Shown here: positions 1,501 to 61,560 of the stretch, piece after piece
Layout of the letters: every line of letters starts with the position of its first letter
How positions within the stretch are numbered: the stretch's first letter is position 1
DNA from: Malacoraja senta
Taxonomy: Eukaryota
NCBI GenBank assembly: GCA_038087875.1
Contig: CM075992.1
Coordinates: 2,296,001 to 2,360,000, forward strand
Length of the DNA stretch: 64,000 nucleotides
Reading direction: 5' to 3'
The notes under the pieces: model-generated
What the model was told of the DNA's origin: nothing
The model's input: the letters and a program-made list of their open reading frames with translations, nothing else
Database searches by the model: none
Program-made: the position numbers and the translations under genes

Positions 1501-1596
1501 AAGACAGACACAAAATGCTGGAGTAACTCAGCGGGGCAGGCAGCATCTGTGGAGAGAAGGAACGGGTGACGTTTCGGGTCGAGACCCTTCTTCAGT
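1501..1596 (-). mobile_element. Penelope-derived mini-element with intact minimal hammerhead core (1568-1595)
   Basis: Minus strand reads ctgaaga-a-gggtctcgaccc-gaaacgtc followed by the shared pLTR-like motif gatgctgcc..gctgagttactccagcattttgtg. Confidence 0.85.
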
Positions 1597-1703
1597 ATGA
1601 AGGAAGGCTGGGCAGAGGGAAAGGCAAGGATCCAAGGGATGTGAGGACAGTGGAGGAAATATTCCTGAGGTTCATCGGCTGACTTGAATTTACATTTATT
1701 CCA

Positions 1704-2298
1704 GGCCAATTAACCTACAATCCTGTACGTCTTTGGAGTGTGGGAGGAAACCGGAGCACCCGGAGAAAACCCACGCAGGTCACAGGGAGAACGAACAAAC
1801 TCTGTACAGGCAGGTCAAGTCAAGTCAAGTCAAGACAAGTTTTATTCGTCATGAATTTGCCAGCAGTGGTACCATAAAAAAAGAACACACAAAAACACAA
1901 TAAAACATTTAACACAAACATCCACCACAGCATTCATCACTGGGGTGGAAGGCACAAAAATTGGCCAGTCCTCCTCCATTTTCCCCCGTGGTCGGGACCA
2001 CAACCCTCCACAGTCGTCGCTGCGGACGTCCAGGTGTACAGACAAGGTAAGACCAGGTAAGTCCTGAATCGGTGCCTCCCCACCGGAGACCGCGGCTTCA
2101 AGATGGTGTAGGCCGCAGGCCGGCGGTGGAAGATCTAAAGTCTCCGCCGCGCCGCAGCCAGAAGCACCGCAGACCGCAGGGCCGGCGGCCGGATCTCCTC
2201 TCCAGGGATCCCCGGCGAGGGACGCCGTAGTCAGGATGGGACCCAGGTCTCTGCTGCTGTAAGGCAGCAACTCTACCAGCTGCGCCACCGTGCCACCC
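1704..2298 (-). mobile_element. V-SINE split by a GC-rich insertion at ~1814-2227
   Basis: SINE body at 1704-1812 and head at 2228-2298; the insert carries a (caagt)n tail. Confidence 0.8.
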
Positions 2299-2483
2299 AG
2301 ATGGCTCCTCTCATTGATGAAAATTGTAACGCGGACCGTTTATTCGGCATCCGAGAGGTCGCTTGTATCTAGTTACTGTACGGGGAGGTTAGTAGCTGCA
2401 GAGTTAGCGACAGTTGATGGATTCTTCTCTATTATCGGTTTCTGTTACTCCCCGCTGTAAACTGAGCAATAAATATCAAACGT

Positions 2484-2817
2484 GTAGTAGGGAAGTATAG
2501 ATGCTGGTTTAAACCAAAGATGGATCACAAAAAGCTGGAGTAACTCAGCGGGACAGACAGGATCTCTGGAGAGAAGGAATAGGTGACGTTTTGGGTCGAT
2601 ACCCTTCTTCGGACCCATTCCTTCTCTCCAGAGATGCTGCCTGTCCCGCTGAGTTAGTTCAGTTTAGTTTACTGTCACGTGTACCGAGGTACAGTGAAAA
2701 GCTTTTATTGCGTGCTAACCAGTCAGCAGAAAGACAATACATGATTACAATCGAGCCATTTACAGTGCATAGGTACATGATAAGGGAATAATGAGTTACT
2801 CCAGCATTTTGTGTCTA
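2484..2817. mobile_element. Inverted-arm Penelope mini-element interrupted by a LINE-tail fragment (~2656-2790)
   Basis: gctggagtaactcagcgggacag followed by its reverse complement; gagtta resumes at ~2793 after the insert. Confidence 0.75.
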
Positions 2818-3848
2818 ACGTGTGCTAATCCTGGAAATGTGATTAAACAATGTAGAGATAATGAATCACTTAAATGGACAGTGCAGCATTTCAGGCAGGT
2901 TTATTGATGATTGAGCATCTGTGATATTAATAGCTGTGAGCAGAGCAGCTATCCTGACAGCTCTGTGAGTGCACAGGCACTCCTGGGGCCGTGTAGACAC
3001 AGGGGCCCCTTCCAACTGTTCTACTTGCTCCGGCTGATCTCAGTCAAGGCGCCACCATTAATCCCTTAATAGCTTTAGCAGAAAGTCAATAAAACTAAAA
3101 TAAACTGTGAAGACTCAACATGTCAGGCAGCGTCCATGGAAAAACAGTGTCAGCAATCCCGCCTCCCCTTCCCTTGCTCAGCACCAGTGTAACAGATGAG
3201 AGGCATTTGGGAAGATGCCACAATCCACTGGCCTCCACTGCCACAGAAGGCAAAGGAGGCCAATTCACTGGATGTTTTCAAGAGAGATATAGCTCTTAGG
3301 GCTAACGGAATCAAGGGATATGGAGAGAAAGCTGGAACGGGGCACTGATTTTAGATGATCAGCCATGATCATATTGAATGACGGTGGCCTTTTCCATGAC
3401 TGGATATGGCCACAAGGCAGTGGAGGTTTTAAATCAGAGTTTTCCCTCTCCTAGATGGACTGCCTTCCCAGGCTGATGAGCCCCATCTGCCCGAGACTCG
3501 TGGGGGCGGGAGCGTCTACCTTCCCGTGCAGGTCTATAGCACCTGCCCGCTGCCCAAGATATATAAGGGTAAACTGATATGTTTATTCCCTCAGCAGCAT
3601 ATTACTCTACATCCAACTGCCCCCCAATCCCCCTCACCCCACCAGTACCCTCCACCGACCCCACAGTTGTCTCTTCTCTCTGGTTTATTACTCATGCTGC
3701 CTTTCACTCGCATGTTTTCTGCTCACACCCAGAGAGAACATTCCTCACACTCCATTTGCTCCCTTCTACCTACGTATTCAGATGTTTCATTGCGAAGTAG
3801 AGTCTTACAACTCAACCCTACATTGCTGCTCTCTGATAAATGTTTTTT

Positions 3849-4163
3849 GTGGCAGTGGTGCGGTGGCGCAGCGGTAGAGTTGCTGCCTCACAGCGCCAGA
3901 GACCCGGGTTCCATCCTGACTACGGGTGCTGCCTGAACGGAGTTTGCACGTTCTCCCCGTGACCAGCGTGGGTTTTCTCCGAGATCTTCGGTTTCCTCCC
4001 ACACTCCAAATACGTACAGGATTGATGGTTAATTGGCTTGGTATAAGTGTAAACTGTCCCTAGAGTGTGTAGGATAGTGTTAATGTACGGGGATCGCTGG
4101 TCGGTGCGGACTCGGTGGGCCGAAGGGCCTGTTTCGGCGCTGTATCTCCAAACTAAACTAAAC
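3849..4163 (+). mobile_element. Full-length tRNA-derived V-SINE (HE1-like)
   Basis: Pol III A-box-like tggcgcagcgg and B-box-like gggttccatcc, V-domain ggagtttgcacgttctccccgtg..ggtttcctcccac, (ctaaa)n tail. Confidence 0.9.
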
Positions 4164-4214
4164 TCTGGGAACTAAAATCCCTTGATGGTGAAGAAAGGTC
4201 CACACAGACAGTAC

Positions 4215-4363
4215 CTTAAAGATAGCGGAGTCAGGGGATATGGGGAGAAGGCAGGAACGGGGTACTGATTGGGGATGATCAGCCATGATCACATTGAATG
4301 GCGGTGCTGGCTCGAAGGGCAGAATGGCCTACTCCTGCACCTATTGTCTATTGTCTATTGTCT
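4215..4363 (+). mobile_element. CR1-type LINE 3' tail
   Basis: Matches the 3' end of the 14431-15197 element; (ctattgt)n tail. Confidence 0.9.
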
Positions 4364-4717
4364 ACTCTTCAAAGATGCTCCATTCGAATCAATCCGATTG
4401 TACTCGTGGTTGTCACAAGCTAGTGGATACCCAAAGGTTATCTCATCCTTCACCCATCTGTGGCTGATTACTGCTCTCAGGTCAATCTGAACAAGTTGGC
4501 TTCAGTCACAATAATTAATAGCAGGGTATGAGCAGGAAGCTGGCTGGATGGGAAAGCCAAAGGTCGACTCTGCAAGAACAGAGAACAATGCCTTTCAAGA
4601 GTTGTTTCTGGGTTGTAAAATATTTCAAAGGCAAGCAGAATTTTAAATATTCAAGAGGTGAGAGAAGTTAATGATTGGAATGGAGATCACCATTGTGCCA
4701 GGGGAAGGACAGATGTG

Positions 4718-4845
4718 TTAAAGAAGGAACTGCAGATGCTGGAAAATCGAAGGTACACAAAAATACTGGAGAAACTCAGCGGGTGCAGCAGCATCTATGG
4801 AGCGAAGGAAATAGGTAACGTTTCGGACCGAAACCCTTCTTCAGA
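4718..4845 (-). mobile_element. Penelope mini-element, UUCG-loop hammerhead subtype
   Basis: Minus strand ctgaagaagggtttcggtccgaaacgtt; aaggacagatgtg duplicated on both flanks. Confidence 0.85.
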
Positions 4846-5040
4846 CAAGGGTTTCAGACAAGGACAGATGTGGTTGGAAGATTTCCTCTTTCCAGATGTG
4901 GGCCAACCACTTGCATCTTGTCTCCATCATACCGCATGGAAACAGGCCCTTCGGCCCAACTTGCCCTTGCTGGCCAAGATGCCCCATCTACACCAGTCCC
5001 ACCAGCCTGTGTTTGCCCCGTATCCCTCTAAACCTTTCTC

Positions 5041-6603: not shown

Positions 6604-7440
6604 GGGCAGCCCACTGGTGCAGCTGGTCGAACTGCTGCCTCATAGCGCCAGAGACCCGGGTTCCATTAAGGGCTTGGACACACTAGAGGCAGGAAACATG
6701 TTCCCAATGTTGGGGGAGTCCAGAACCAGGGGCCACAGTTTCAGAATAAGGGTAAGCCATTTAGAACGGAGACGAGGAAACACTTTTTCACACAGAGAGT
6801 TGTGAGTCTGTGGAATTCTCTGCCTCAGAGGGCGGTGGAGGCAGGTTCTCTGGATACTTTCAAGAGAGAGCTAGATAGGGCTCTTAAAAATAGTGGAGTC
6901 AGGCGATATGGGGAGAAGGCAGGAACGGGGTACTGATTGGGGATGATCAGCCATGATCACATTGAATGGCGGTGCTGGTTCGAAGGGCTGAATGGCCTAC
7001 TCCTGCACCTATTGTCTATTGTCTATTGTCATTCTGACCTAAGGTGTTGTTTGTGTGTTCTCCTGTTTCCCTAGGTGCTCCAACATACGCAGGTTTTAAG
7101 GTTAATTGGCCTCTGTAAATTGCCCATTGTATGTAGGGAGTGGATGTGAAAGAGGAATAACATAGAACTAGTGTGATGGTGTGTGTCGGAAGGAACTGCA
7201 TATGCTGGTTTAAACCGAAGACAGAAACAAAATGCTGGAGTAACTCAGCGGGACAGGCAGCATCTCTGAAGAGAAGGAATGGGTGACGTTCGGGTCTCGA
7301 CCTGGATCCTTCTCTCCAGAGATGCTGCCTGCCCGGCTGAGTTACACCAGCATTTTGTGTCTATCTTTAGGGTGATCAATGGTCAGCCTGGACTTGGAGG
7401 GCCGAAGGGCCTGATTCCAAGGTGTGTCTTTCAATCAATC
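6604..7440 (+). mobile_element. V-SINE with nested CR1 tail (~6667-7029) and Penelope mini-element (~7181-7368)
   Basis: SINE gggttccatt|ctgacc is split with a catt duplication; SINE tail resumes at ~7370. Confidence 0.8.
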
Positions 7441-8111: not shown

Positions 8112-9530
8112 TCACAGCTGGTAGAGCTGGCGAACCTCTCAGCGCCAGAGACCCGGATTCGATCCTGACCTCGGGTGCTATCTGTGTGGTGTTTGCACGT
8201 TCTTCCTGTGATCGCGTGGGTTTCCACTGGGTGCTCCGGTTTCCTCCCACATCCCAAAGAAGTGCGGGTTTGTAGGTTAGTTGGCCTTCTCTAAATTACC
8301 CCTAGTGTGCAGGGAGTGGATATAAGAAAGTAGGATAACAAATTAACTAGTGTGAACAGGTACATAAAATGCTGGAGAAACTCAGCGGGTGCAGCAGCAT
8401 CTATGGAGCGAAGGAATAGGTAACGTTTCGGGCCGAACCCTTCTTCAGACTGATAGGGGGTGGGGAGAAGAAAGGAAAAAAGGAAAAAGGCGGAGGAGGA
8501 GCCCGAGGGCTGGAGGAGGGGAGGAGACAACCAGATGGCTGATGAAGGGGAGGGGACAGCAAGGGCTAGCAGAATTGGGAGAATTCAATGTTCAAACCCC
8601 CAGGATGTAGACTGCCCAAGCGGAATATGAGGTGCATTTCCTCCAATTTACGGTGTTGCTCGCTGTGGCCATGGAGGAGACCCAGGACAGAGAGGTCAGA
8701 TACGGAATGGGAGGGGAGTTGAAGTGCTGAGCCACCGGGAGTTCAGGTTGGTTATTGCGGACCGACCGGAGGTGTTCGGCGAAACGATCGCCAAGCCTCC
8801 GCTTGGTCTCACCAATGTAGATCAGCTGGCATCTAGAGCAGCGAATGCAATAGATGAGGTTGGAGGAGATGCAGGTGAACCTCTGTCGCACCTGGAACGA
8901 CTGCTTGGGTCCTTGGATGGAGTGGAGGGGGGAGGTGAAGGGACAAGTGTTGCATCTCTTGCGGTTGCAAGGAAAGTACCAGGGGAGGGGGTGGTATGGG
9001 AGGGAAGGGAAGAATTGACAAGGGAGTTACGGAGGGAGCGGTCTTTGCGGAAGGCAGACATGGGGGGAGATGGGAAGATGTGGCGCGTGGTGGGGTCACG
9101 TTGGAGGTGGCGAAACTGACGGAGGATCACTTGTTGTATGTGACGGCTGGTGGGTGAAAGGTGAGGACTAGGGGGACTCTGCCCTTGTTGTGAGTGGGGG
9201 GATGGGGAGAGAGAGCAGTGTTGCGGGGTATGGCAGAGACCCTGGTGCGAGCCTCATCTATGGTGGAGCAGGGGAACCCCCGTTCCCTGAAGAATTAGGA
9301 CATTTCAGATGCCCTGGTGTGGAACGCCTCATCCTGGGAGCAGATGCGGCGTAGACGGAGAAATTGGGAGTGGGGGATGGAGTCCTTACAGGAAGCAGGG
9401 TGGGAAGAAGTGTAGTCCAGATAACCATGGGAGTCGGTAGGTTTGTAGTGGATAAACCTACCGACTCAGGTGATCGATGGTTGGCATAGACTTGGTGGGC
9501 CAAAGGTCCTGTGTCCATGTTGCATCTGTT
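8112..9530 (+). mobile_element. V-SINE split by a Penelope-like element
   Basis: SINE at 8112-8361 continues at 9467-9530; TSD caggt. Confidence 0.8.
8362..9466 (-). mobile_element. 5'-truncated Penelope-like retroelement (RT C-terminus, GIY-YIG endonuclease, pLTR with hammerhead); frameshifted
   Basis: ORF 8592-8891 reads FTCISSNLIYCIRCSRCQLIYIGETKRRLGDRFAEH (GIY-YIG); upstream frames give RQFRHLQRDPTTRHIF and YKPTDSHGYLDYTSSHP; hammerhead core at 8422-8448 on the same strand. Confidence 0.92.
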
Positions 9531-12843: not shown

Positions 12844-12981
12844 CGGTTGTCGCAGTGTCGTCTCAATTGAAATATGTTATTCACTCTCCTCTCCTTAACG
12901 TGATATCTCTCAATGAAAGTTTTGATTGTCCTTGGAAAACCCAGCTGTAGTTGCCATTCTTTACACGTTATCTTAGAGGGT

Positions 12982-13462
12982 GAAGATAGACACAAAATGC
13001 TGGCGGGTCAGGCGGCATCTCTGGAGGGAAGGAATGGATGACGTTTCGGGTCGAGACCCTTTGTCAGACTGAAAGTCACGGGAAAGGGAAACGAGAGATA
13101 TAGACGATGATGTAGAGAGATATAGAACACATTAATGAAAGATAGGCATAAAAGTAACATTGATAAAGGAAACAGGCCATTGTTAGCTGTTTGTTCGGTG
13201 AGAACGGAAAGGTGGTATGACTTGGGTGGGGGAGGAATGGAGAGAGAGGGGAATGCAGGGGTTACTTGAAGTTAGAGAAATCAATATTCATGCTACTGGG
13301 GTGCAACCTTCCCAAGCTAAATATGAGATGCTATTCCTCCAATTTGCGTTTAGCCTCACTCTGACAATGGAGGAGGCCTAGGACAGAAAGGTCGGTGTGG
13401 GAATGGGAAGGGGAATTAAAATGTTTAGCAACCGGGAGATCAAGTAGGTCCAGGCAGACTGA
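12982..13462 (-). mobile_element. Penelope-like element 3' fragment
   Basis: Homologous to 8580-8760 (GIY-YIG C-terminal region) plus pLTR motif. Confidence 0.85.
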
Positions 13463-16893: not shown

Positions 16894-19260
16894 TCCCCTA
16901 GCTATGGTGATTTTTCTTACACTACAATGACGTGCATCGGTGAAAAGCGAAACAGAGTTAACATTTCATGGTTGAAAACACTTCATCGGAAATGGCAAAG
17001 AGAGAAAATTAATTTGTTTTCAGTTGCAAAGAGAGTGGGGAGGGATGAACAAGAGAGCATCTCTTTCCACAGACGCTTACTGACCTGATGGGTTTTTAAA
17101 GCATTTTCTGTTTTTATTTCAGATTTCCGATATCTGCAGTGTTTTTGATTTTCATTGAGTCTTCAATCAAGAAACTGTACTTCAGTATCTGGCATCACAC
17201 TCTCTGGTGAGTTGTAAACAATAAAGGTTGTATAAGCCCTTAAAATGAAAACTATACAAGGACCAGCACTGAATAATATTTTCAATATAATATTAGATTC
17301 TAGTTTAGAAATACAATGTAATTACTACACAAGTATATACCTATTAATTTAAACTGAGTAAAATTTGTGATACATTGTGATATTTTGTGACTGTGTGTTC
17401 TTCTATCAGAGATTGGCTGGAAACTACCAAGCAATGATACAAAGATGCCATGCTGCTGTATTTGACGCATGTAGTGAGGTACAGTGAAATTCATTTTACT
17501 TTGCAGTTCAGTACGTATCACTGTACATAAGCTCTTAGGTACATCTTAGATACATATCTCAGATACAGTACAAGTGAATATCAGTGGTACACTGAGTATA
17601 CAGAATTGCCAGTTTTTGGTGCCATTTATTCATTTGCTGGTTTATTTGCCCACCTGAGATTAGAAGGGACACCAGATAGGACGACTTCATCAGTACTTCA
17701 AACGTCACCTATTCGTCTCTCCATAGTCGTCAACTTTATTTGTCACACACACATGCAACATGTGCAGTGAAATGAAAGTGGCAATGCCTGCGGATAGTGC
17801 AAATACAACAGAACAGAATAGAACAGACCAGTATTTACATTTTAGATGGGTTTACATTCTGAAGAAGGGTTTCGGTCCGAAATGTTGCCTATTTCCTTGG
17901 CTCCATAGATGCTGCCTCACCCGCTGAGTTCCTCCAGCATTTTGGTCTACCAGTTATGACTATCAGCGAGACAAATTCAGAGCTGAATTAAGTTCATAAG
18001 TTCATAAGTACTAGGAGCAGAATTAGGCCATTCGGCCCATCAAGTCTACTCCACTATTCAATCATGGCTGATCTATCTTTCCTTCTCAACCCCATTTTCC
18101 TGCCTTCTCCCCATAACCCCTGTCATCTGTACTAATTAAGAATTAACTAGTATAATGGAGTTTTTAAAATGATAGTCATAACTGGTAGACCAAAATGCTG
18201 GAGGAACTCAGCGGGTGAGGCAGCATTTAAAAAACTCCCGGAAATATTTTAGGAGCAAGGAACTGCAGGTTCTGGTTTATAAAAGAAGACACACAGTGCT
18301 GGACAGAACTGTGTGTCTTCTCCCAGAAATCTGTTACTGAGTGTCCAATAAATATGAGATAGTGAGATGAAAAAATGTATTATTTTGTAACTTACAGTTT
18401 ACATAAAAAATTCCTGGATGTTTAATAAAATGCATTAAATGCATTAAATGTGTCAAGGGAACGGTATAATATTTGCAGTCGTGAATCACCATGGTGACAC
18501 AGCTTGCTTTTGTTTTATTGTTGGCTAATGAATAATGCTCCATGTGTTTTACATTTCATCGAAAACGCTCCTCACAACATGTGTCTCTCTCAGCTGTGGG
18601 CATCCTACGTGTGAACTACTGCTCTTGGTTCATTGTCCAGCTCCACACAAACCCACCTCTGTTCCTTTAATCCCCCCCCCCCCCCCATGGTCTGGAGGCC
18701 TCAGGTTATTGGAAATGGACACAAAATGCTGGCGTAACTCAGCGGGACAGGCAGCATCTCTGGAGAGAAGGAACGGTGACGCTTTGGGTCCGGACACTTC
18801 TTCAGACTTTCGAACCATTCCTTCTCTCCAGAGATGCTGCCTGTCCCGCTGAGTTACTCCAGGACTTTGTGTCCATCTTCGGTGTCAATCAGCATCTGCA
18901 GTTCCTTCCTACACATTTTGTCTGATTATTGGGTGTTGGGTTCCCAAGCAGTGATGGATGTCTGGTGTGGAGAAGTGGAAAGTAGATCTCATTCGTGTTT
19001 GTATGGGGGCTCTCCAATCATCCATTCCTGTGATGAAGCTTTCTTGGCTGATCTATCTGGAATAATGGCACAGCAAGGGTCCAAGATGAGATCAGTTTCA
19101 TTTACTTCTCCTTTGCTCTGGACCAAGGGTAAATGATGTCAGTGGCTGACTAATGCAATGTTGGCAAAGTTAAAGAAACTATTTTATATAGTGTATTTCA
19201 GTCTTCTTCATAACACAAGATGGCGTACAGCATGGGGGACGGTCAGATTGCACCAGTGCT

Positions 19261-23100: not shown

Positions 23101-23318
23101 AAGGTCTAAATTGTACTGAAACTCTACTTGAACTGACCTCTCCCCATGGGATATGCCTCTGTCACTGTATCACTTTAAACTAAACCTCAGCATTTCAAAA
23201 TCCTGCAGGGAACTACAGGCCGGTGAGCCTTATATCAGTGGTGAGAAAGTTACCGGAACAGAACTGGTAGGCCGCAGGAGGTGCCCCAGGGACACAAAGA
23301 TAGTCGGGCAAGGGGAGG

Positions 23319-25255
23319 AGAACTAAATATTTTTCCAACCTTATCTCCAAAAACGCGCATAATTCCAAGGTCCTCTTTAGCACCCACCTCCATCATCTGT
23401 CCTGCCCCCAGCACCAGCCTAACTGGGTCCCCTGCTAAGTGCGAGGAATTTACCACATTCTTCACCAGCAAGGTAAAGAACATAAGAATGAATATTTCCC
23501 CTCCCACCCGTGACCTGGCTGTCTCATTGGTCTGCTCTTCAAAATTAGACTGTTTCCAACCCGTTACTCTACCCTCCCTTGTAAAACTGATCACCACCAT
23601 GAAACCTACTACCTGCCCCCTCGACACTGTCCCCTCTGCCCTCCTAAAGGACGTCATTACAACAGCTGGTCCCAGCATCCTCGCCATCTTCAACAGCTCT
23701 CTGGCCACTGGCACTGTACCTACCTGCTTCAAGCCTGCGGTGGTCCAACCACTCCTGAAAAAACCTAACCTCGACCCCACCCTGCCAAGCAACTACAGAC
23801 CCATTTCTAAACTGCCTTTCCTCTCAAAAGCCCTTGAAAAGGTCATTTTAAGTCAACTTATACCTCACCTTCACCAAAACACTATCTTGGAAACTTTCCA
23901 ATCAGGTTTCAGGGCTCACCATAGCACAGAATCTGCCTTGTTAAAGGTACACAATGACCTACTGCTCACCATTGACTCTGGCGACTGTGCAATTCTGCTC
24001 CTTCTTGACCTCAGCGCAGCATTTGATACTGTCGACCACACCATCCTAATTGACCGTCTCCGGTACGGGGTTGGTATTCATGGCACTGCCCTGAGCTGGT
24101 TCATCTCCTATCTCAAAGATAGGAGTTTCTCGACTGACATAGGCAACTCTTCCTCCTCCCCAGCTAATCTCTGCTGTGGGGTTCCACAAGGTTCCATCCT
24201 TGGCCCCATTCTCTTCTCCCTGTATATGCTCCCCTTAGGCCAAGTCATTGAAAGGCACGGCATTTCCTTCCATTGCTACGCAGACGATACACAACTCTAT
24301 CTCCCCCTGAAGCCCAAAAACCAATCAAATCTGTTTAACCTTACCCACTGCCTCGAGGATATAAAGTGTTGGATGGCCCAGAACTTCCTCCAACTAAACG
24401 AGAGTAAGTCTGAGGTCATCCTTCTCGGCCCCTTGGACTCAATCAAAATGATAGCAGGCAGCCTTGGAAGCCTTACCCCACTACTCACGTCAAAAACCTT
24501 GGCGTGATATTTGACTCAGCACTGAAATTTGACAAACAAGTCAATGCCGTGGTAAAAGCTAGCTTCTTTCAGCTTCGGACGATAGCTAAAATAAAACAAT
24601 TCCTTCAGTTTGATGACCTCGAAAAGATCATCCACACATTCATCTCCTCCCGCCTAGATTACTGCAACTCCCTTTACACTGGCATCAGCCAATCTTCCCT
24701 GTCCCGCCTGCAACTGGTCCAAAACGCCGCAGCGAGACTCCTGACGGGCACCCGAAAAAGGGACCACATCACCCCGATCCTGGCCTCTCTCCACTGGCTC
24801 CCTGTGCGGTTCCGTATAAACTTCAAGATCCTCCTCCATGTCTACAAAGTCCTCAATGGGCTTGCCCCCACCTACATAAAAAGTCTTCTCACCCACCACT
24901 CCACCTCCAGGCCCCTCAGCTCGGCCGACTTGGGGTTGCTGAATATCCCACGGTCTAGGCGTAAGCTCAGGGGCGACCGCGCCTTTGCGGTTGCAGCTCC
25001 TAGACTGTGGAACAGCATCCCCTTTCCCATCAGAACTGCTCCCTCCATCGACTCTTTTAAGTCAAGACTAAAGACGTATCTATACTCCCAAGCCTTTCCT
25101 GACGTCCTCTGAGTGAGGGCTACATGTATATATGTATGTAGTTTGTTTTGTTTGTGCTATTCTTATAACAAATGTAAAGCACTTTGGCCAACGAGAGTTG
25201 TTTTTTAAATGTGCTATATATAAAATAAATGTGACTTGACTTGACTTGACTTGAC
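23319..25255 (+). mobile_element. 5'-truncated L2-clade LINE with near-intact reverse transcriptase (frameshifts near ~23385 and ~24490)
   Basis: NYRPISKLPFLSK, QSGFRAHHSTESAL, LLDLSAAFDTVDH, GVPQGSILGP, YADD (24277-24288), HITPILASLHWLP; (gactt)n tail. Confidence 0.95.
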
Positions 25256-38391: not shown

Positions 38392-39890
38392 TAAGTTCAG
38401 TCAGTGCAGTCATAGCACTTGAAGCTGTTCCACTACTGATGAAGTCAGGGCATTGGGGAAGGAAGGGATGGTGCAGAACAGAAAATCTTGTTTCCTATAT
38501 TCATCATATTTTCTCACAATGTAGCATTTAACCTTTTAACTCTAAGCTGACTCGGAGTGATCCAACCCCCCCCCCCCCCCATATTAACTGCCAACAAATT
38601 CCCTCACAAACCCAGCCACTTCAGCTCAATCTGAAGAAGGGTCTCACGCCAAAACGTCACCCATTCCTTCTCTCCAGAGATGCTGCCTGTCCCGCGGGAG
38701 TTACTCCAGCGCTTTGTGTCTATCGTTGGTTTAAAGCAGCTTCTGCAGTTCCTTCCGACACACTTCGCCCTAGTTTTCTGCTCAGCGACCCACACCCACG
38801 GGTAATTTACACCAGACAATTAGCCTCGCAACTTTGAGGATATGGCAGGAAATTAAAACTCCCGGGAGAAATCCGCACAGTCCACACCAGTCAGCACCAG
38901 AGGTCGGGATTAAAAGCAGATGGATACGTGAGGGAGGGGAGGAATGAGCTGTAGATGTGGGTGTGTATGGGAGGACAGGGTTAAGCAGCATTGTTAAGAG
39001 CATAGAACAGTAAAGAACAGGAACCCACTGTGAAACCCACCCATTAACCCACAATGTCCACGCCAAATATGATGCCATTAAACTAATCTCTGCCTGCATG
39101 TCCATGATCCAAGTCCCACAATTCCCAAATTGAGAAGATTCCCAAATTCCCAAATTCCAACTCGCAAAACAATATCCACGTGCCTCTTAAACTATTGTAT
39201 CTGCACCCACCCCTCTGGCAGTGTGTTGCAGGCCCCTGGATAGAAGGAATGGGTGACCTTTCGAGTCGAGACGTCTGAGAAAAGGGTCTCGACCAGAAAC
39301 GTCACCCATTCCTTCTATCCAGAGATGCTGCCTGTCCCTCAGAGTTACTCCAGGGTCTACTCGGTTTAAACCAGCATCTGCGATTCCTTCCTGCAATGTT
39401 CCACACCCCCACCAGTCTCGGCATAAAAAAACTTGCCCCGCACATCTGTGTATCTCGTTTCTATTTCCCCTGAGTCTGAAGAAAGGTCTCGATCCGTAAC
39501 GTCCCCTGTTCCTTCTCTCCAGGGATGCTGCCTGACCCGCTGAGTTACTCCAGCTTTTAGTGTCCATCTTAAAGTTAGTACCACATTAGTTTTTGACATT
39601 TCCACCCTGGGAAAAAGGGTTCTGACTAACCTCTCTCTGCCTCTCGTGATTTTATAGACTTACGCCAGGTCTCCCCTCAGCTTCCAACACTCCAGACAAA
39701 ACAATCTGCGGAGTTTTTAATGCGTTTTGCACTGAGATAGTGGTGCTCGGAACACAGTGCCAGGAATGATTGTGGAGGCAGATGAGATAGTGGCGTTTAA
39801 GAGGCTTTTAGAACGGGGTATGTAAGGAATGGAGTGGATGTGGATTACGTGTCGGCAGAGAAGACTAATTTAATTTGGCATCTAGAGAAG

Positions 39891-41800: not shown

Positions 41801-41884
41801 ACCTGGGCAAGAACATGGTGTACCACAGATGCCTCATCCAGTACCAGCATCCAGGCTAATGCAGCATCTGCAGTTCCTTGCCAC

Positions 41885-42290
41885 GCCCAACACCTCCGCT
41901 CGGTCCGCAGTAACCAACCCGATCTCCCGGTGGCCCAGCACTTCAACTCCCCCTCCCATTCCAAATCCGACCTTTCTGTCCTGGGCCTCCTCCATGGCCA
42001 GAGTGAGGACCACCGTAAATTGGAGGAGCAGCACTCATATTTCGCTTGGGCAGTTTGCACCCCAGCGGTATGAACATTGACTTCTCTAATTTCAGGTAGT
42101 CCCTGCTTTCTCCTCCCCTTCTCGGCTCTCCCTCAGCCCACTGGCTCCGCCACTTCCTTTCTTCTTCGCGCCCTCCCACTCACCCTCACATCAGTCTGAA
42201 GAAGGGTCTCGACCCGAAACGTTGCCTATTTCCTTCGCTCCATAGATGCTGCCTCACCCGCTGAGTTTCTCCAGCATTTTTGTCTACCTT
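41885..42290 (+). mobile_element. Penelope-like 3' fragment with hammerhead core at 42196-42223
   Basis: Translates HLRSVRSNQPDLPVAQHFNSPSHS..LEEQH, matching the 8592-8891 element. Confidence 0.9.
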
Positions 42291-42945: not shown

Positions 42946-43349
42946 ATAATTCTCAAAGAAGAGCCAAAGGAACATGTAACAAAGGGAAGGTAGACAAAAA
43001 TGCTGGAGAAACTCAGCGGGTGCAGCAGCATCTATGGAGCGAAGGAAATAGGCAACGTTTCGGGCCGAAACCCTTCTTCAGACAAGGGGATCCTGGTATC
43101 GAGGGATCTCGAAGGTTGGATAAAGAGAAGAAACAATTCTCCTCTATACCTACAACATCTTAAAGCTATGCCCTCTTGTCACAAATACCCCCACCAGGAG
43201 AAAAGGATGTTTAGTATCTAGTTCTCTATCCCCTTGATAATTTTATGCCCCTCTGAGACATCACCCCTCAGCCTCCAGAGCTCCAGGGAAAGCAAACCCA
43301 ACCCATCCACCCCTTCTTGTGTCTAAAATGCTCCAATCCAGCCAACATC

Positions 43350-43512
43350 CTGGAGTAACTCAGCGGGACAGGCAGCATCTCTGGAGAGAAGGAATGGGTG
43401 ACGTTTCGGGTCGAGATGGGTCTGAAGAAGGGTCTCGACCCGAAACGTCACCCATTCCTTCTCTCCAGAGATGCTGCCTGTCCCGCTGAGTTACTCCAGC
43501 ATGTTGTGTCTA
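43350..43512. mobile_element. Palindromic Penelope mini-element; hammerhead 43416-43455 with a full 6-bp stem I
   Basis: atgggt-ctgaaga-a-gggtctcgaccc-gaaacgtc-acccat. Confidence 0.85.
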
Positions 43513-44483
43513 TAACAGTTCCTTCCTGCAACATCCTGATGAACCTCTTCCACACTCTCTCCAGCATAACCACAACCTATCTATGATGGTGCAGGCCAGA
43601 TTGCTCACGATATTCCAATGTAACCAGTTTTGATAAAGGTTGAATATGAAGAACCGTGCGTTAGGTTCAGACCACGAGCCAATGAAGGGAAGCAACTTTC
43701 TTCAAAAGTTACATCCTCGCAGAACAAAGTTAATAAATGGTCAACAAGAGGCATGCAAGACCAGGAGCCAAGAATGCTAGTGCGCTGTGCTGTGACGGAT
43801 CAGGTTCATTACAATTGGATGTGGTTGCTCACTGTTCTGGCCCCAGACTGATTTAATAGCATTAATCTGATGAGGAGGTCGTTTGATTTTTGCCCGAAAC
43901 AGCTTGGTCAGAAACTCGCTATCTTCCTGTTTACTGGGGAGGGTCCAAGCCGAGGTGAGTCCGTGTTTCTTTCTCAGACACGGATGACTTGGGAGAATAA
44001 GGATTGCATCAGAGAAATGTTGAGAACCACACGGGAAGACCTTGGCCAAGATCCATCCCAGAACACAACGATGACTTGGATAGAGTGTAGGAAGGAACTG
44101 CAGATGCTGGCTTACACCGAAGAACTTTTCTTAAGTTAGACACCAAATGCTGGAGTAACTCAGCGGGACAGGCAGCGTCTCTGGAGAGAAGGAATGGGTG
44201 ACGTTTTGGGTCGAGACCCTTCTTCAATCTTTTCTTGAACTTCTCTGCTGCAAGGAGGGCAATCTCAACATCTCTGACGTCTGATCATATGTTTGTGAAA
44301 GGAGTTTACTCTGCTCGAGTCACCAGAATCCACCGTTATGCGTGACAGAACATGCCAACCTTGGAGAGTAAACTTGGTCAATAGGAAAAAATAGTCACAG
44401 AAAACCTAAAGGGAGCATGTGGAAATGCTGCCAACTTTGGGAGCAGCTTATTTTTACTTAAAAAATCCGTTCCCCTCTATCAG

Positions 44484-47713: not shown

Positions 47714-48417
47714 TTGGCTGCTTGTCCTTGCTCAGACAACCCGTCCCAATCGCTTTGTGCTGATCCAGACAAGGACTCAGACAAGATGGTGGATCTGGGC
47801 ACAAAGGGTGTCTCAGTCATTGTGTAAAGACATCAACAATCCCATCTGGTGTCCAAGGGAAGCATGGCTTAGATCCAGAATAGACCGGCTCATAGAACAG
47901 AGCAGTACTCCAAAGACTGCAGTCTGAAGAAGGGTCTCGACCCGAAATGTCACCCATTCCTCTATCCAGAGATGCTGCTTGACCCGCTGAGTTACTCCAG
48001 CATTCTGTGTCTACTTCAGCACTCCAGGCATGTAGGTTTTGAGGGTAACTGGCTTGGTATAATTGTAAACTGTCCCTAGTGTGTGTAGGATAGTGTTAAT
48101 GTGCAGGGATTGCTGGTCGGTGCGGACTCAGTGGGCCGAAGGGCCTGTTTCACCATTGTATCTCCAAACTAAACTCTTAGGGCTCTTAAAGATAGTGGAG
48201 TCAGGGGATATGGGGAGAAGGCAGGAACGGGGTACTGATTGGGGATGATCAGCCATGATCACATTGAATGGTGGTGCTGGCTGGAAGGGCCGAATGGCCT
48301 ACTCCTGCACCTATTGTCTATTGTCTAAACTGAACTAAAGCACAAGTACAATCAGGCACAGGCACTTCAGTCCATAATGTCTGTGCCGAACATGATGGCA
48401 AGTTAATGTATAGAACA

Positions 48418-50006: not shown

Positions 50007-50780
50007 ATAAGGGCCCACAAGGTTTTCCTGGAGTTCCCTTCCACTTACTCATTCATTCACCTGATGGAACTTGTTCTCACATTGAACGAGTAGAAACAAG
50101 TGTAGACACAGAATGCAGTAGTAACTCAGCGGGACAGGCAGCAGCATCTCTGGAGAGAAGGAATGGGTGGCGTTTCGGGTCGAGACCCTTCTTCAGACTG
50201 AGAGTCAGGGGAGAGGGAGACAGAGAGAGAGGTATGGAAGGATAATGAATGAATATGAATATGAATATAACTTTAATTGTCATTCAGGTATACACATAGA
50301 CACAGTGCACATTGAACGAAATTTTGTTGCATTGACTCTTCAAAGTAGCAGCAGAATATAACATTTATATCAGGCGATCAGTAAAAGTGCTTAGTGTGTC
50401 CATAAAAAGTGCTTCATGTGCATAGTTAAAAAAGGAAAGTTTTTAAAAGTGGCAATGTATAAGAAAGTTCTAGCATCGGTTTGATTGTGAGTTCAATAGT
50501 CTTATGGCCTGGGGGATGAAGCTGTTGCAGAACCTGGTTGTCCCGCTCTAAGGTGTGAAAACACAGAACTGCTGATGCTAGTTTACAATAAAAGGGTCAT
50601 AGTGCTGGAGTAACTCAACCCAAAACGTCATCTATCCATGTTTTCTCCAGAGATGCGGTTTGACCCACCGAGCACTTTGTGTCTCACAAGGAAGTACGTC
50701 TCTTTCAACTCCACTCACAGTCAAGATCTTCAACCTGAGATTCCTGTCCAATGTTTTCAGTTTGTATCTCAATCTCAATT

Positions 50781-51107: not shown

Positions 51108-51608
51108 TCGATTTCTTGCTTTCTCCCTGCATCCATATGTCCATTCTACAGCACAATTATCTTACGTCCCGTAGCTACAGAAAGTGACGGTTTCCCATGA
51201 CTTGCTGCCTGCCAATGCTTTGCTAGGCGTTCCATCTACTCATTAGTATCTGCTGGACAGCATTCAAATAGTTGGTGGAAAACGAGAAGCAGATGCAGGC
51301 CATTGAACCTGTGAAGCAAAGTCTGCCACTTAAAAAAATTACAAGCGACCTGATTGTGATCTCAACTCTACATTCCAGACTACTCAAAGTAACCTTTCAT
51401 CCTCTTGTTTATCAAGAACATGTCTACCTCTGCCTTCAAAACATTCAAGGAATCTGTTTTCGGGAAGAGTGTTCCAAACACACCTGACTCTATTAGAGAA
51501 AACATTTTGCCTCACCTCTACCTTACTTTTAAACAATGGCCCCCCTAGCCCCCAGGCATCTTCTCCATATCCGGTCAAGACCGACAGGATTTTATATCTG
51601 GAGGAGAC

Positions 51609-52015
51609 AACTGCAGACGCTGGTTTACACCAAAGATCGACACAAAGTGCTGGAGTAACTCAGCGGGACAGGCAACTTCTCTGGAGAGAAGGAATGGGTG
51701 TCGAGACCCTTCTTCAGATTGAGAGTCAGGGGAGAGGGAGACACGGATATATGGAGGGGGGAGGTGTGAAAACGAGACATCAGAGGGGACAAAGTTCAAG
51801 GGAAATGTAGAATAGATCATTGTTACCTAGTGACAACGTAGGCAAACAAAGATAAACTGTAGGTACACAAAAATGCTGGAGAAACTCAGCGGGTGCAGCA
51901 GCATCTATGGAGCGAAGGAAATAGGTAACGTTTCGGGCCGAAACCCTTCTTCAGATAAACTGTAATCAGGAGGACAGTCCGACTGGCCAGAGAACTAGGA
52001 TGGGGGAGGGATGGA
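51609..52015 (-). mobile_element. Penelope pLTR fragment with a second mini-element nested inside (~51862-51952)
   Basis: 12-bp duplication agataaactgta around the nested copy. Confidence 0.8.
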
Positions 52016-52593: not shown

Positions 52594-53548
52594 ATCTCAC
52601 CTCATATTTCGCTTGGGCAGTTTGCACCTCAGCGGTATGAACATTGACCAGTCATTGAAAGTAGGCATGCAGGTGCAGCAGGCAGTGAAGAAAGCGAATG
52701 GTATGTTAGCATTCATAGCAAAAGGATTTGAGTATAACAGCAGGGAAGTTCTACTGCAGTTGTACAGGGTCTTGGTGAGGCCGCACCTGGAGTATTGCGT
52801 ACAGTTTTGGTCACCGAATCTGAGGAAGGACATTCTTGCCATAGAGGGAGTACAGAGAAGGTTCACCAGACTGATTCCTGAGATGGCAGGACTTTCATAT
52901 GAAGAAAGACTGGATAGACTCGGCTTGTACTCGCTAGAATTTAGAAGATTGAGGGGGGATCTTATGGAAACTTACAAGATTCTTAAGGGGTTGGACAGGC
53001 TAGATGCAGGAAGATTGTTCCCGATGTTGGGGAAGTCCAGAACAAGGGGTCACAGTTTAAGGATAAGGGGGAAGTCTTTTAGGACCGAGATGAGAAAATC
53101 ATTTTTCACACAGAGAGTGGTGAATCTGTGGAATTCTCTGCCACAGAGGGTAGTTGAGGCCAGTTCATTGGCTATATTTAAGAGGGAGTTAGATGTGGCC
53201 CTTGTGGCTAAAGGGATCAGGAGGTATGGAGAGAAGGCAGGTACAGGATACTGAGTTGGATGATCAGCCATGATCATATTGAATGGCGGTGCAGGCTCGA
53301 AGGGCCGAATGGCCTACTCCTGCACCTAATTTCTATGTTTCTATGTTTCTATGACTTCTCTAATTTCAGGTGGTCCTTATTTTCTGGCTCCACTTCTTTT
53401 CTTCTCCCCTCCCCCCCCCCCCCCCCCTCCCCTCCCCCACCGTCACATCAGTCTGAAGAAGGGTTTCGGCCTATTTCCTTCGCTCCATAGATGCTGCTGC
53501 ACCCGCTCAGTTTCTCCAGCATTTTTGTCTCCCTTCGATTTTCCAGCA
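52594..53548 (+). mobile_element. Penelope 3' fragment split by a CR1 insertion
   Basis: gaacattgac|ttctctaatttcagg is split; TSD tgac. Confidence 0.85.
52649..53351 (+). mobile_element. 5'-truncated CR1 LINE (open RT C-terminal ORF)
   Basis: ORF 52613-53254 LYRVLVRPHLEYCVQFWSP; (ctatgttt)n tail. Confidence 0.95.
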
Positions 53549-53848
53549 TCTGCAGTTCCTTCTTAAACATCTCACCTATCTATATCCCTTTGTAGCCTCC
53601 TTGTATCCTTTCCACTACTTACTTTTTGACCTATCTTCGTGTCTTCCATGAGGGACGGGCTCTTTGCTGAGTTGCGCAGGAAGGGACTGCAGTTGGGGGT
53701 ACATACCAAAGATAGACACGAGGCGGAGGAGCAACTCAGCGAGTCAGGCACATCTTGGAACCCTTCCTCAGACCCCAAATATAACCTGTTCCTTTTCTCG
53801 AGAGATGCTGCCTGCCCCACTGAGTTACACTAGCACATTGTCTCCTAA

Positions 53849-56020: not shown

Positions 56021-56663
56021 TCTCTAACTTCTACAGGTGCACAGTAGAGAGCATGCTGAGAGTAGAGGGTTGCATCGTGGCTTGGTTCGGCAACTTGGGC
56101 GCCCAGGAGAGGAAAAGACTGCAAAGAGTAGTAAACACTGCCCAGGCTCTGACCTCCCTTCCATCGAGGGGATCTATCGCAGTCGCTGCCTCAAAAAGGC
56201 TGGCAGTATCATCAAGGACCCACACCATCCTGGCCACACACTCATCTCCCTACTACCTTCAGGTAGAAGGTACAGGAGCCTGATACTGCAACGACCAGGT
56301 TCAGGAATAGCTACTTCCCCACAGCCATCAGGCTATTAAACTCAACTTAAACAAACTCTGAACATTAATAGCCCATTATCAGTTTATTTGCACTTTATCA
56401 GTTTATTTATTCATGTGTGTATATAGCTATATAATGGTATATGGACACACTGATCTGTTTTGTAGTCAAAGGTACACAAAAGTGCTGGAGAAACTCAGCG
56501 GGTGCAGCAGCATCTATGGAGCGAAGGAAATAGGCAACGTTTCGGGCCGAAACCCTTCTTCAGACTTTGTAGTCAATGCCTACTATGTTCTGTTGTGCTG
56601 AAGCAAAGCAAGAATTTCATTGTCCTATCAGGGGCACCTGACACTAAACTCTCTTGAATCTTG
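56021..56663 (+). mobile_element. Rex1/Babar-like LINE 3' end with nested Penelope mini-element (56470-56565, minus strand)
   Basis: GCIVAWFGN..RKRLQRVVNTAQ and IIKDPHHPGHTLISLLPSGRRYRS; nested copy has 11-bp TSD tttgtagtcaa. Confidence 0.85.
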
Positions 56664-56852
56664 AGAGCAGTGCTGAACTACTATCCACCTCCTTGATGTC
56701 CCTCGGACTATCCCTGACTGTACTTTGCTGGCTCCATCTTGCACTAAACGTCATTCCTTTATCGTGTATCTGTACACTGTGAATGGATTGATTGTAATCA
56801 TGTGTTGTCTTTTTGCTGACTGGTTAGCACGCGACAAAAAGCTTTTCACTGT

Positions 56853-58208: not shown

Positions 58209-59318
58209 CTTACTCCAGCACTTTGTTACTCCAGCACTTTGTTACTCCAGCACTTTGTTACTCAAGCACTTTGTTACTCCAACACTGTTACTCCAGCACT
58301 TTGTTACTCCAGCACTTTGTTACTCCAACATGTTGTTACTCCAACACTGTTACTCCAGCACTTTGTTACTCCAGCACTTTGTTACTCCAACACTGTTACT
58401 CCAGCACTTTGTTACTCCAGCACTTTGTTACTCCAACATGTTGTTACTCCAACACTGTTACTCCAGCACTTTGTTACTCCAGCACTTTGTTACTCCAACA
58501 CTGTTACTCCAGCACTTTGTTACTCCAGCACTTTGTTACTCCAACATGTTGTTACTCCAACACTGTTACTCCAGCACTTTGTTACTCCAGCACTTTGTTA
58601 CTCCAGCACGTTGTTACTCCAACACTGTTACTCCAGCACTTTGTTACTCCAACACTGTTACTCCAACACTGTTACTCCAGCACTTTGTTACTCCAGCACT
58701 TTGTTACTCCAGCACTTTGTTACTCCAACACTGTTACTCCAGCACTTTGTTACTCCAACACTTTGTTACTCCAACACTGTTACTCCAGCACTTTGTTACT
58801 CCAACACTGTTACTCCAACACTGTTACTCCAGCACTTTGTTACTCCAGCACTTTGTTACTCCAGCACTTTGTTACTCCAACACTGTTACTCCAGCACTTT
58901 GTTACTCCAACACTTTGTTACTCCAACACTGTTACTCCAGCACTTTGTTACTCCAACACTGTTACTCCAGCACTTTGTTACTCCAGCACTTTGTTACTCC
59001 AGCACTTTGTTACTCCAGCACTTTGTTACTCCAGCACTTTGTTACTCCAGCACTTTGTTACTCCAGCACTTTGTTACTCCAGCACTTTGTTACTCCAGCA
59101 CTTTGTTACTCCAGCACTTTGTTACTCCAGCACTTTGTTACTCCAGCACTTTGTTACTCCAACACTGTTACTCCAGCACTTTGTTACTCCAACACTGTTA
59201 CTCCAACACTGTTACTCCAGCACTTTGTTACTCCAGCACTTTGTTACTCCAACATGTTGTTACTCCAACACTGTTACTCCAGCACTTTGTTACTCCAGCA
59301 CTTTGTTACTCCAGCACT
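58209..59318. repeat. 1.1-kb minisatellite of 14/16-bp units (gttactccagcacttt and variants)
   Basis: Direct observation. Confidence 0.97.
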
Positions 59319-59687
59319 ATGAGGTTTTTTTAAGGTTTCTCATGCCGTGTTATTAATTCGGCGTGACACTCTGATAATGCCACAAAATGAGGACATCCAT
59401 GGGCCTTCTTTGCTCAACCTGTCTGCTGCTACAGGAAGTATCAGTTTCCTTGTAACAGTGCAAGTTTCTTCTACCTTTGCAACTATCAGCAGGTGGATCT
59501 CAGCATCAGCAATAAACTCAAAACTGTGAGTGAAAATTGACCACCAAAAAACTGCAGATGCTGGTAATCTGAAATAAAAACAGAAAACTCAACAAGACAG
59601 AGTCAAGTATCTCTGGGTCAAAACTCAAGTAGGTGAAACATGATGGTCCTTGCAGAAATCAGTCTTGTCTTTGTTCACCCAACTATT

Positions 59688-60005
59688 GGGCGGCATGGTG
59701 GCGTAGTGGTCGAGTTGCTGCCTTACAACGCTTACAGCACCAGAGACCCGGGTTCCATCCTGACCACGGGTGCTGTCTGTACGGAGTTTGTACGTTCTCC
59801 CCGTGACCTGCGTGGGCTTTCCCTGGGTGCTCCAGTTTCCTCCCACACTCCAAAGACGTACAGGATTGAAGGTTAATTGGCTTGCTATAAATGTAAATTG
59901 TCCCTAGTGTGTGTAGGGTAGTATTAGTGTGCGGGGATCGCTGGTCGGCGCGGACTCGGTGGGCCGAAGGGCCTGTTTCCGCGCTGTATCTCTAAACTAA
60001 ACTGA
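59688..60005 (+). mobile_element. Full-length V-SINE
   Basis: Consensus-like. Confidence 0.9.
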
Positions 60006-60131
60006 ACTATTATTTTCCATGAGTTCCCAGCATCTCCCTAGCACTGAGGACATGCTCGCAGTTTGGTGATTCCCTCTTTCCCCTCTCCTCCCTTCCTTAC
60101 ATAGTAGGCTCTCACTTGCTGCTCTCCAAAA

Positions 60132-60435
60132 GGGCAGCACAGTGGCGCAGCGGTAGAGTTGCTGCCTCACAGCGCCAGGGACCCGGGTTCCATCCTGACT
60201 ATGGGCGCTGGCTGTACGGAGTTTGTACATTCTCCCCGTGACCTGCGTGGGCTTTCTTCGGGATCTCCAGTTTCCTCCCACACTCCAAAGACATAGAGGT
60301 TTGTAGCTTAATTGGATTTGGTAAAATTGTAAATTGTCCCCAGTGTGTGTAGGATAGTGTTAGTGTGCGGGGATCGCTGGTCGGTGCGGACACAGGAGGG
60401 CCTATTTCCATGCTGTATCTCTAAACTAAACTAAA
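60132..60435 (+). mobile_element. V-SINE
   Basis: Consensus-like. Confidence 0.9.
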
Positions 60436-60774
60436 AGGCCTATCTCCTTTGCTCCATAGAAAGCCTATTTCCTTCGCTCCATAGATGCTGCTGCACCCGC
60501 TGAGTTTCTCCAGCATTTTTGTCTACCTTCGATTTTCCAGCACCCTTCTTAAACAAATAAATAATAATAACACTGATTTCAATAATAATAAAACAACTCC
60601 CTACACACATTAGACTCATCAATCTGTATTTACCAGTCCTATCTCTGCTGCCTGTCTTGAATGAAGGTACCACATTTGTTGTTCTCCAGTCACCTGGGTC
60701 CTCTTCTGTGGCCAGAAAAGACTTGAATATTTCTGTCAATCTCCTCTCCGTCTCTGACTGCAGTCTGGGATAAA

Positions 60775-61077
60775 CTTACAGTCCAGTGGTATGAATATCG
60801 ATTTCTCTAACTTCAAGTAACCCCGGCAATCCCTCTTTCTCCATCCCTCCCCCACCAGCTTCTAGTTTTCACTCAACAAACAGCTAACAATGGCCATCGT
60901 TACTTTTTTGCATATCTTTCATTCATTGTTCTTTATCTCTCTACATCATCGTCTATATCTCTAGTTTCCCTTTCCCCTAACTAGTTAGAAGAAGGGCCAG
61001 GACCCGAAACGGCACCTATTCCTTCTCTCCAGAGATGCTGCCCGTCCCGCTGAGTCACTCCAGCATTTTGTGTCTGT
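60775..61077 (+). mobile_element. Penelope 3' fragment with degenerate hammerhead
   Basis: cagtggtatgaatatcgatttctctaacttcaagtaa plus pLTR motif. Confidence 0.8.
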
Positions 61078-61468
61078 GTGGGATAAACTTCATTGGTCTT
61101 TGGGCATCCATCCATCTTTAAGCTTGCTCACTCATCCAATACCGTCTCGCTTTCAATGGAAACTTCTTGTACATTTCCACTGTCCCCCTCCCTAGGTTTT
61201 TTGCAAGGACTTCAGTCAACAGAGCTGATTGTGTGTTCCCATTTAGACAATGGCTGCAGAGAGCCGTGCCAATTTAGATCAACATCTTGCAGGGTTTGGT
61301 GAGTTGTTCAAATCTGGCAGCTTGCTAGCCATGTTCCTTTCCCCACGTGGCCATTATATTATTGTGTCCCTTTCCAGTGGATGCTGACCAATGTGTTTAG
61401 TTTACATCAGCTCAGTTCAGTTTAGTTTAGCAGATGCTTCAGGTTTGGTCCCTTCTGCCCCACAATTA

Positions 61469-61560
61469 GTCTGAAGAAGGGACCCGTCCCGAAACGTCAC
61501 CCATCCAAGTTCTCTGAAGATGCTGCCTGACCCGCTGAGTTACTCCAAAACTGTGTGTAT
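61469..61560 (+). ncRNA. Penelope mini-element hammerhead core with variant stem II
   Basis: ctgaaga-a-ggga-cccg-tccc-gaaacgtc at 61471-61498. Confidence 0.7.

Follow-up and report, generated by a model that had tools for sequence, protein, structure and literature searches.

Hammerhead motifs and a Penelope-like element

We analyzed a 64,000-nucleotide window of the Malacoraja senta genome (assembly GCA_038087875.1, contig CM075992.1, positions 2,296,001 to 2,360,000), in which short repeats carrying a minimal hammerhead ribozyme motif accompany a Penelope-like element (PLE) ending in the same motif. All 13 motifs of the initial annotation were found to be present on the strands it gave and to follow the pattern CUGAAGA-A-(4-bp stem, tetraloop)-GAAACGU(C/U), with the motif at 8422 one loop base short as had been described. 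When the window was searched with CTGANGA-N8-16-GAAAC, 16 matches were obtained compared with 0.37 expected (100 shuffles), including (i) 15 family members; and (ii) a match at 9938 that was unrelated to the hammerhead family. A 31-nt family pattern with up to 3 mismatches matched the window 22 times and was absent from every shuffle; BLAST of the window with two real copies as queries delimited 58 unit segments; and a profile search returned 91 matches at E-values up to 10, of which 18 came from one minisatellite. This amounts to 18 intact cores in 64 kb and about one unit per kilobase. The two subtypes (A and B) proposed earlier proved to be real upon alignment of the copies, with H17 being C in subtype A and U in subtype B; the copy at 42196 is a hybrid in which helix II is of the A type and the downstream part of the B type, and the copy at 61471, with a third kind of helix II, represents a third, older variant. 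No match at the gathering score was detected in the window by Rfam and no model caught the hammerhead motif, with two weak matches, both unrelated, being all that was returned for 32000-32400. The exact family pattern likewise had no match in the viral, metagenome, and genome contigs searched. Separately, an isolated CTGATGAG...GAAAC match at 43867-43900 (+) lies outside the family, has an unconvincing helix II, and is probably due to chance.

The PLE occupies 8358-9466 on the minus strand and is 5′-truncated and frameshifted. It includes the end of the reverse transcriptase (RT) thumb, a CX4CXXC linker, a GIY-YIG domain (8592-9026, minus strand; Pfam PF01541, E-value 1e-4, above the cut-off), a pyrimidine-rich pseudo-long terminal repeat (pLTR), and a hammerhead core (C3 at 8448) followed by about 90 nt. 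The motif itself (8421-8450, minus strand) is of subtype B with a helix I of 2 bp. It was confirmed to end the GIY-YIG element on the coding strand, and in 8362-9466 as well as five other copies the 3′ end of GIY-YIG was found upstream of the motif, consistent with a pLTR location. The RT-endonuclease linker of the window copy has the CX4CXXC form, and its cysteines were invariant in the protein alignment, with the best protein matches being from a skate, a shark, and two rays (67-81%). The RT core is absent from the window copy, and PF00078 was detected in some of the homologues. CX4CXXC-type linkers are described as a feature of the Neptune and Nematis clades (PMC8557442), and Neptune and Poseidon are the only PLEs found among vertebrates (bioRxiv 10.64898/2026.07.22.740005); thus, judging from the linker, we infer that the parent PLE is of the Neptune type. 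A scan with the PLE protein gave no confirmed viral locus and six metagenome loci, of which only L001 had a clear hammerhead context. In L001, an inverted head is joined 3 nt before the 5′ hammerhead (50-207), and a decayed 3′ hammerhead at 2790-2825 has a helix II nearly identical to that of the window family and a helix I of 4 bp.

Ends and origin of the hammerhead units

These repeats are probably short insertion products of endonuclease-bearing Neptune-type PLE subfamilies. Positions were numbered with C3 of CUGA as +1, the preceding U as 0, and the G before that as -1, such that the predicted cut falls between +28 and +29. Of 34 units that include the C3 position (a decayed copy at 424 was left out), 23 were found to have only 0-6 nt of upstream sequence in common with longer copies (mode 2), and the remaining 11 to reach from about -30 to -1000; two of these 11 (39476 and 60986) were classed as long by similarity farther upstream, and the anchor of 53771 was set 2 nt off. 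The clustering of the 5′ ends was significant even when compared with short ends only (binomial, about 1e-11), and in four of the short units, hereafter stubs (4844, 32263, 51954, and 56563), the boundary was fixed by target duplications. The downstream ends fell into two classes about 35 nt apart: of the 38 units (from the 58 BLAST segments) that were taken into the alignment, 17 have a tail extending to about +120 to +131, and most others stop between about +86 and +97. Eight of the 38 insertions, and none of 150 mismatched-flank controls, had target duplications of 12-17 bp. The flanking duplications noted earlier are confirmed for these eight, and four more of 10-11 bp with one mismatch were below the threshold used.

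The initial annotation had proposed a very high-copy non-autonomous family mobilized by the PLE; it did not include the 2-bp length of helix I, the two classes of 3′ ends, the inverted pairs, or the minisatellite derived from the unit. The PLE origin of the repeats and their mobilization by PLE machinery were supported; the claim of a distinct family was not, since each subtype mixes short copies with long ones. When 31 units were placed in a tree, the short and long labels required 10 changes compared with a mean of 9.3 when shuffled; resolution was low, with one starred branch of 27, and that branch forces at least two label changes. Short and long copies both lie inside the one well-supported subtype clade. 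As the two lengths interleave, every PLE subfamily seems to give rise to such stubs repeatedly. A dedicated family, SINE- or retrozyme-like, in which the PLE mobilizes, in trans, the transcripts of a single short master copy or of a few, is quite unlikely. Such a family would fit the very uniform 5′ end, the depth of the unit in DNA and RNA runs from relatives, about 3- to 10-fold that of the open reading frame (ORF) region (depth being a rough measure), and the derivation of animal retrozymes from pLTRs in bioRxiv 10.64898/2026.07.22.740005. The arms of five inverted pairs (described below) also have private changes in common, a reference-specific base at +51 being discounted, which indicates that diverged copies served as sources. 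Counter to this, the short copies form no clade, the subtype markers are common to short and long copies, the unit has no tRNA head and no tandem arrays in the window, and the 5′ ends lie mostly away from the cut site.

If the units are PLE insertion products, the route may be outlined as follows. Each unit corresponds to the end of the element, with the hammerhead motif and about 90 nt, with or without the tail of about 35 nt. The PLE protein would nick the target, and reverse transcription would start inside the RNA at about +90 or +130 from C3, by analogy to the PLE of the anole, in which (i) the tail (30-40 bp) is bounded by two internal RT start sites; (ii) both target strands are cut and extended; (iii) uncleaved RNA is the main template; and (iv) the ribozyme needs protein (PMC11167929). 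In most cases the copy stops 1-3 nt short of the CUGA core, where the outer pair of the 2-bp helix I lies; the preferred 5′ limit may be a physical RNA end (a start site or a trimmed end) or a hard stop. As 23 of the 34 core-bearing units begin within 0-6 nt of the core, upstream of the cut site, the template would be mostly uncleaved. Priming on both target strands, or fold-back of the cDNA, would then yield a head-to-head pair closed by a duplication of 12-17 bp. The hammerhead would belong to the parent PLE, where it may be a weak, protein-assisted ribozyme acting as a dimer, and in the stubs it would be a passenger under neutral decay.

The structure of the motif was examined in the 28 aligned copies that span the core. 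All 11 core bases were found to be kept in 18 of these, with the CUGANGA and GAAA boxes together with U16.1 and H17. Helix II has the G10.1-C11.1 pair, follows an unpaired base after A9, and measures 4 bp in 17 of the 18 intact copies; 93.7% of the cells were paired compared with at most 53% in slid controls of the whole structure, and true covariation was scant. Positions 15.2-16.2, which form a palindrome in place of helix III, are CG in 14 intact copies (ACGU kept) and TG, consistent with CpG decay, in the other four. These features (core, extra base after A9, G10.1-C11.1 pair, and ACGU palindrome) bear out the assignment as a minimal hammerhead, and it is the activity of the stubs that is doubtful, given a 2-bp helix I, a single intact same-strand pair, and 5′ ends mostly upstream of the cut site. 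Of 20 copies, 11 have a helix I of 2 bp, six of 0-1 bp, and three of at least 4 bp, a length reached only where an inverted arm supplies it. No significant excess of core conservation was detected: subtypes A and B differ at 0 of 11 positions in the core and 10 of 61 downstream (Fisher P = 0.34), and non-CpG sites of subtype A have decayed at 16 of 226 in the core compared with 108 of 1,500 in the flank (P = 1). The only intact same-strand neighbors, 32088 and 32263, gave a dimer fold of -28 kcal/mol compared with -56 kcal/mol for the best fold, with one helix I pair broken. Single units with native 5′ ends mostly folded no better than shuffles (z -0.2, 0.5, and 0.7; one tailed B copy, z -2.6), strong folding was restricted to inverted pairs, and with RNAalifold the gapped alignment yielded no consensus structure. 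Because helix I is 2 bp, the copies stand alone, and decay in the core matches that in the flank, most copies are likely to be inert.

Two explanations of the fixed 5′ end were considered, along with RNA of a related organism (polyA library; 9,487 reads aligned from about 6% of the run). Several causes fit the sequence TCAGT at the boundary, which resembles an initiator, reads as a splice acceptor behind the pyrimidine tract, supplies one half of a quasi-palindrome, and coincides with the edge of helix I. One tentative account places a pLTR initiator at TCAGT, which would put the start of the RNA 2-3 nt ahead of CUGA and make the stubs run-off, strong-stop-like copies reaching from the internal start to the RNA 5′ end. 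The sequence TCAGTCT fits the initiator consensus YYANWYY. The account is also in line with an ACGT about 27-30 nt downstream (compare the RGACGTGY downstream element named in PMC2377424), a copy (4844) that stops at G(-1) twice, extra G residues at several junctions, and the inverted head of the distant PLE L001, also joined 3 nt before CUGA (a single case). However, the same bases can be read as a splice acceptor and a palindrome, leaving the match not independent; the modal start is G rather than A; and in Drosophila virilis the start is about 125 nt upstream of C3 (start 371 in PMC2377424; C3 at 496 in Table S1 of PMC4209133). Another possibility, likewise tentative, is a structural or protein boundary: the limit might be set by the hammerhead with protein bound to it, by a factor sitting on the polypyrimidine tract and AG, or through resolution by the endonuclease at the TCAG-N-CTGA quasi-palindrome. 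Here the boundary coincides with the outer helix I pair; in long copies a tract of 73-97% pyrimidine terminates in AG exactly at the boundary, much as the D. virilis PLE intron ends in AG after a pyrimidine tract (PMC2377424); the palindrome center is flipped (AGACTGA) in several copies; and helix II holds a cluster of further 5′ ends (9 of 27; P = 0.05), as does the vicinity of a hairpin at +63 to +78. Against a boundary of this kind, the short copies have no common upstream exon sequence, and none of the 15 joints listed out of 243 was covered by RNA reads. In the RNA, 296 reads passed from the element into unrelated sequence at G(-1) (agreement 0.34). The unit was covered equally on both strands, as expected of passengers in host transcripts, and molecule ends formed no pile-up. 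A peptide search for exonized units gave three uninformative matches. A splice-supplied helix I was not supported: two candidate pLTR donors, picked by eye, would still leave 2 bp, and the short copies share no exon.

Several observations weigh against the interpretation of the units as insertion products of PLE subfamilies copied from uncleaved RNA. No full-length copy of the PLE family was seen in the window, and neither the ORF start nor the true RNA 5′ end is visible there. The junction calls were curated by hand, with microhomology blurring them by 1-3 nt, and the modal start, G(-1), is one base away from the A expected of an initiator start. Given the low resolution of the tree, short master copies may yet have served as sources, and the copies at 22468 and 51954 are identical across the aligned part. 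Over the ORF (8573-9446), first mates were 2- to 3-fold more common on the minus strand in the RNA of the related organism, which, if the library is of the usual stranded type, suggests antisense RNA of the element; this would fit the antisense-template idea of PMC3846280. Finally, among the 27 5′ ends curated by hand beyond the core on its downstream side, +29 itself accounts for three (P about 0.008) and +30 for one more (P about 0.03 for the four within 1 nt of the cut site), and the unit at 60438-60485 begins twice at the predicted cut site. Some cleaved templates may therefore exist. A GU/AC microhomology also explains one of the three +29 junctions, so these ends only suggest occasional cleavage. 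That the stubs as a whole are copies of ribozyme-processed or circular RNAs, with self-cleavage driving their spread, is very improbable: the junctions at the cut site speak for it, but 23 of the 34 core-bearing units start upstream of the core, the dimer fold of the sole tandem pair is far from the best fold, and no pile-up of RNA ends was detected at the cut site, albeit in a weak test (the partially read polyA library of a relative).

Inverted pairs, a minisatellite, and other copies

Fourteen head-to-head pairs of units were identified in the window, of which P1 to P13 were compared and P14 was found later. Both arms were of the same subtype in all 13 compared pairs (chance about 0.001), and exactly one arm was tailed in 10 of the 13. 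The tailed arm was found to be the arm shorter at its 5′ end in P4 (18712-18915, whose tail arm starts at the cut site), P5 (20829-21041), P6 (22345-22559; subtype B, 15-bp duplication, intact core at 22468), P9 (27625-27798; subtype B, 14-bp duplication), and P14 (50565-50684; old). Since fold-back of one cDNA cannot run past its own start, fold-back does not explain these five pairs, which need two priming events; P6 and P9 are each enclosed by one duplication of 14-15 bp. The other nine pairs fit with fold-back or with either route, including P1 (2484-2662), in which the start of the short arm coincides exactly with the predicted cut site and the main arm has a mutated core; P2 (7182-7367); P3 (10377-10518); P7 (26384-26627), with a tail on both arms and the helix II loop inverted in one; P8 (27272-27606), in which both arms have upstream pLTR and intact cores (27369, minus strand; 27481, plus strand); P10 (36556-36716); P11 with a following decayed copy at 39476 (39236-39570); P12 (43343-43527), with an intact core at 43422; and P13 (53678-53844; decayed). 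Inverted head-to-head pLTRs are an architecture known from endonuclease-bearing PLEs (PMC3846280 and PMC8557442). Two further observations concern the pairs. At 2530-2660 (minus strand), the inverted arm provides a long, fully paired helix I, and the copy folds as a textbook hammerhead (-87.8 kcal/mol) even with two core bases mutated; according to such folding, inverted junctions of this kind could by accident create monomer-active ribozymes. The helix II loop is reverse-complemented at 26490-26514 and 7280-7302 (both minus strand), representing hairpin inversion in two independent inverted pairs.

A minisatellite of 72 units was located at 58210-59321 (plus strand). Its main 16-nt unit corresponds to +69 to +84 of the PLE unit, at the inner 3′-end site, and matches this segment exactly in two PLE copies; the template of the 16-nt unit is bounded by a 2-nt direct repeat adjoining the inner start site. 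Variants of 14 nt recur along the array, which also has higher-order blocks of about 108 nt, and its left flank is without other PLE sequence. Realignment of the telomerase-related RT could have seeded the minisatellite; the 14-nt variants and higher-order blocks of this single locus, however, show expansion at the DNA level.

The remaining copies consist of stubs and longer copies. Stubs of subtype A were found at 1500-1596 (minus strand; intact core, without helix I, no duplication found) and 32260-32353 (plus; 17-bp duplication with 2 mismatches, the partner of 32088). Subtype B stubs were found at 4714-4860 (minus; tail, 13-bp duplication, 5′ start at G(-1) occurring twice), 17855-17951 (plus), 42986-43083 (minus; intact core), 56474-56565 (minus; 13-bp duplication with 1 mismatch, intact core), and 60438-60555 (plus; start at the predicted cut site, first 22 nt duplicated). 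Others include a stub with a short palindromic head at 47914-48017 (plus), one of the third, older variant with an intact core at 61468-61566 (plus), and decayed stubs at 34960-35050 (plus), 38625-38762 (plus; tail), and 44087-44230 (minus; tail). The longer copies are located at 12981-13430 (minus; 5′-truncated, with pLTR and the GIY-YIG end and a decayed core), 31838-32215 (plus; pLTR, intact core at 32088, tail), 41884-42290 (plus; the A/B hybrid with an intact core at 42196), 50103-50240 (minus; about 40-65 nt of pLTR, U16.1 mutated), 53352-53569 (plus; subtype B, pLTR and tail, core partly deleted), and 60783-61075 (plus; pLTR, decayed core, 17-bp duplication with 2 mismatches). A longer A copy with a deleted core (51597-52015, minus) encloses a nested B stub at 51861-51955 that has a 12-bp duplication and an intact core. 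B-type copies at 17855-17965 (plus) and 18170-18229 (minus) lie 230 nt apart, tail to tail, with a common private variant and an identical 15-nt 3′ flank, explicable by inverted duplication at the locus or by a short 3′ transduction. Apart from this family, a broken RT ORF at 23245-25112 (plus; Pfam RVT_1, E-value 2e-32) belongs to another retroelement, probably a LINE, and repeats present at least twice within the window cover about 31 of its 64 kb, including other high-copy SINE- and LINE-like families.

Comparison with known systems

The observations can be joined into one scheme in which (i) the RNA 5′ end lies 1-3 nt before the core and the stubs are strong-stop-like cDNA; (ii) an RNA dimer held by ACGU on a protein dimer primes both strands at two start sites, giving the pairs; (iii) a minority of templates is cut by the ribozyme in vivo; and (iv) the RT realigns on 16 nt, seeding minisatellites. 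Each part finds some support in the window, none amounting to a demonstration, and the scheme is unlikely to hold in its entirety. A literature search, with Repbase, Dfam, and most subscription papers outside its reach, returned no paper on a PLE hammerhead family in cartilaginous fish, a 5′ hot spot at the hammerhead, or PLE-tail minisatellites formed by reiteration.

Several published systems resemble the window family in part. The minimal hammerheads of PLEs (PMC4209133) have the same type I core without helix III, the extra base after A9, the G10.1-C11.1 pair, and ACGU, and likewise occur as thousands of solitary copies tied to truncated PLEs and as opposite-strand pairs; their helix I is mostly 3-5 bp compared with 2 bp here, although 2-bp examples are found in the D. 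virilis, Culex, and Oikopleura rows of the Fig. S3 text. No cartilaginous fish was seen among the rows of that alignment in the portion available. The Poseidon element PAc of Anolis carolinensis (PMC11167929) also has a hammerhead at the pLTR-ORF junction, two 3′-end classes separated by the tail, an uncleaved RNA template, and no RNA ends at the cut site. The window family differs in having a Neptune-type linker and no ORF start seen, and in its 5′ hot spot at the hammerhead and stub-sized copies, neither of which is described in the accessible part of that report. Insertions of endonuclease-bearing PLEs (PMC3846280 and PMC8557442) similarly have an inverted pLTR, a single tailed arm, a target duplication that encloses the complete unit, and palindromes at the junction. 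In contrast to these, the whole insertion here can consist of two end modules only, and in five pairs the tail is on the 5′-shorter arm, an arrangement impossible by self-priming of one cDNA. Animal non-LTR retrozymes (PMC7229834 and bioRxiv 10.64898/2026.07.22.740005) are similarly pLTR-related, hammerhead-bearing, and non-coding with large duplications; unlike these, the window units are without tandem monomers and canonical helices I and III, and their ends are not set by the cut site. The PLE minimal hammerhead class has been known since 2014, and the window extends it to a further host lineage and provides an example of very high density. The value of the window lies in its library of junctions, through which the 5′ finish of PLE insertions, the formation of inverted heads, and in vivo cutting can be tested by junction counts, with exact positions now named for 5′-end mapping and cleavage study.

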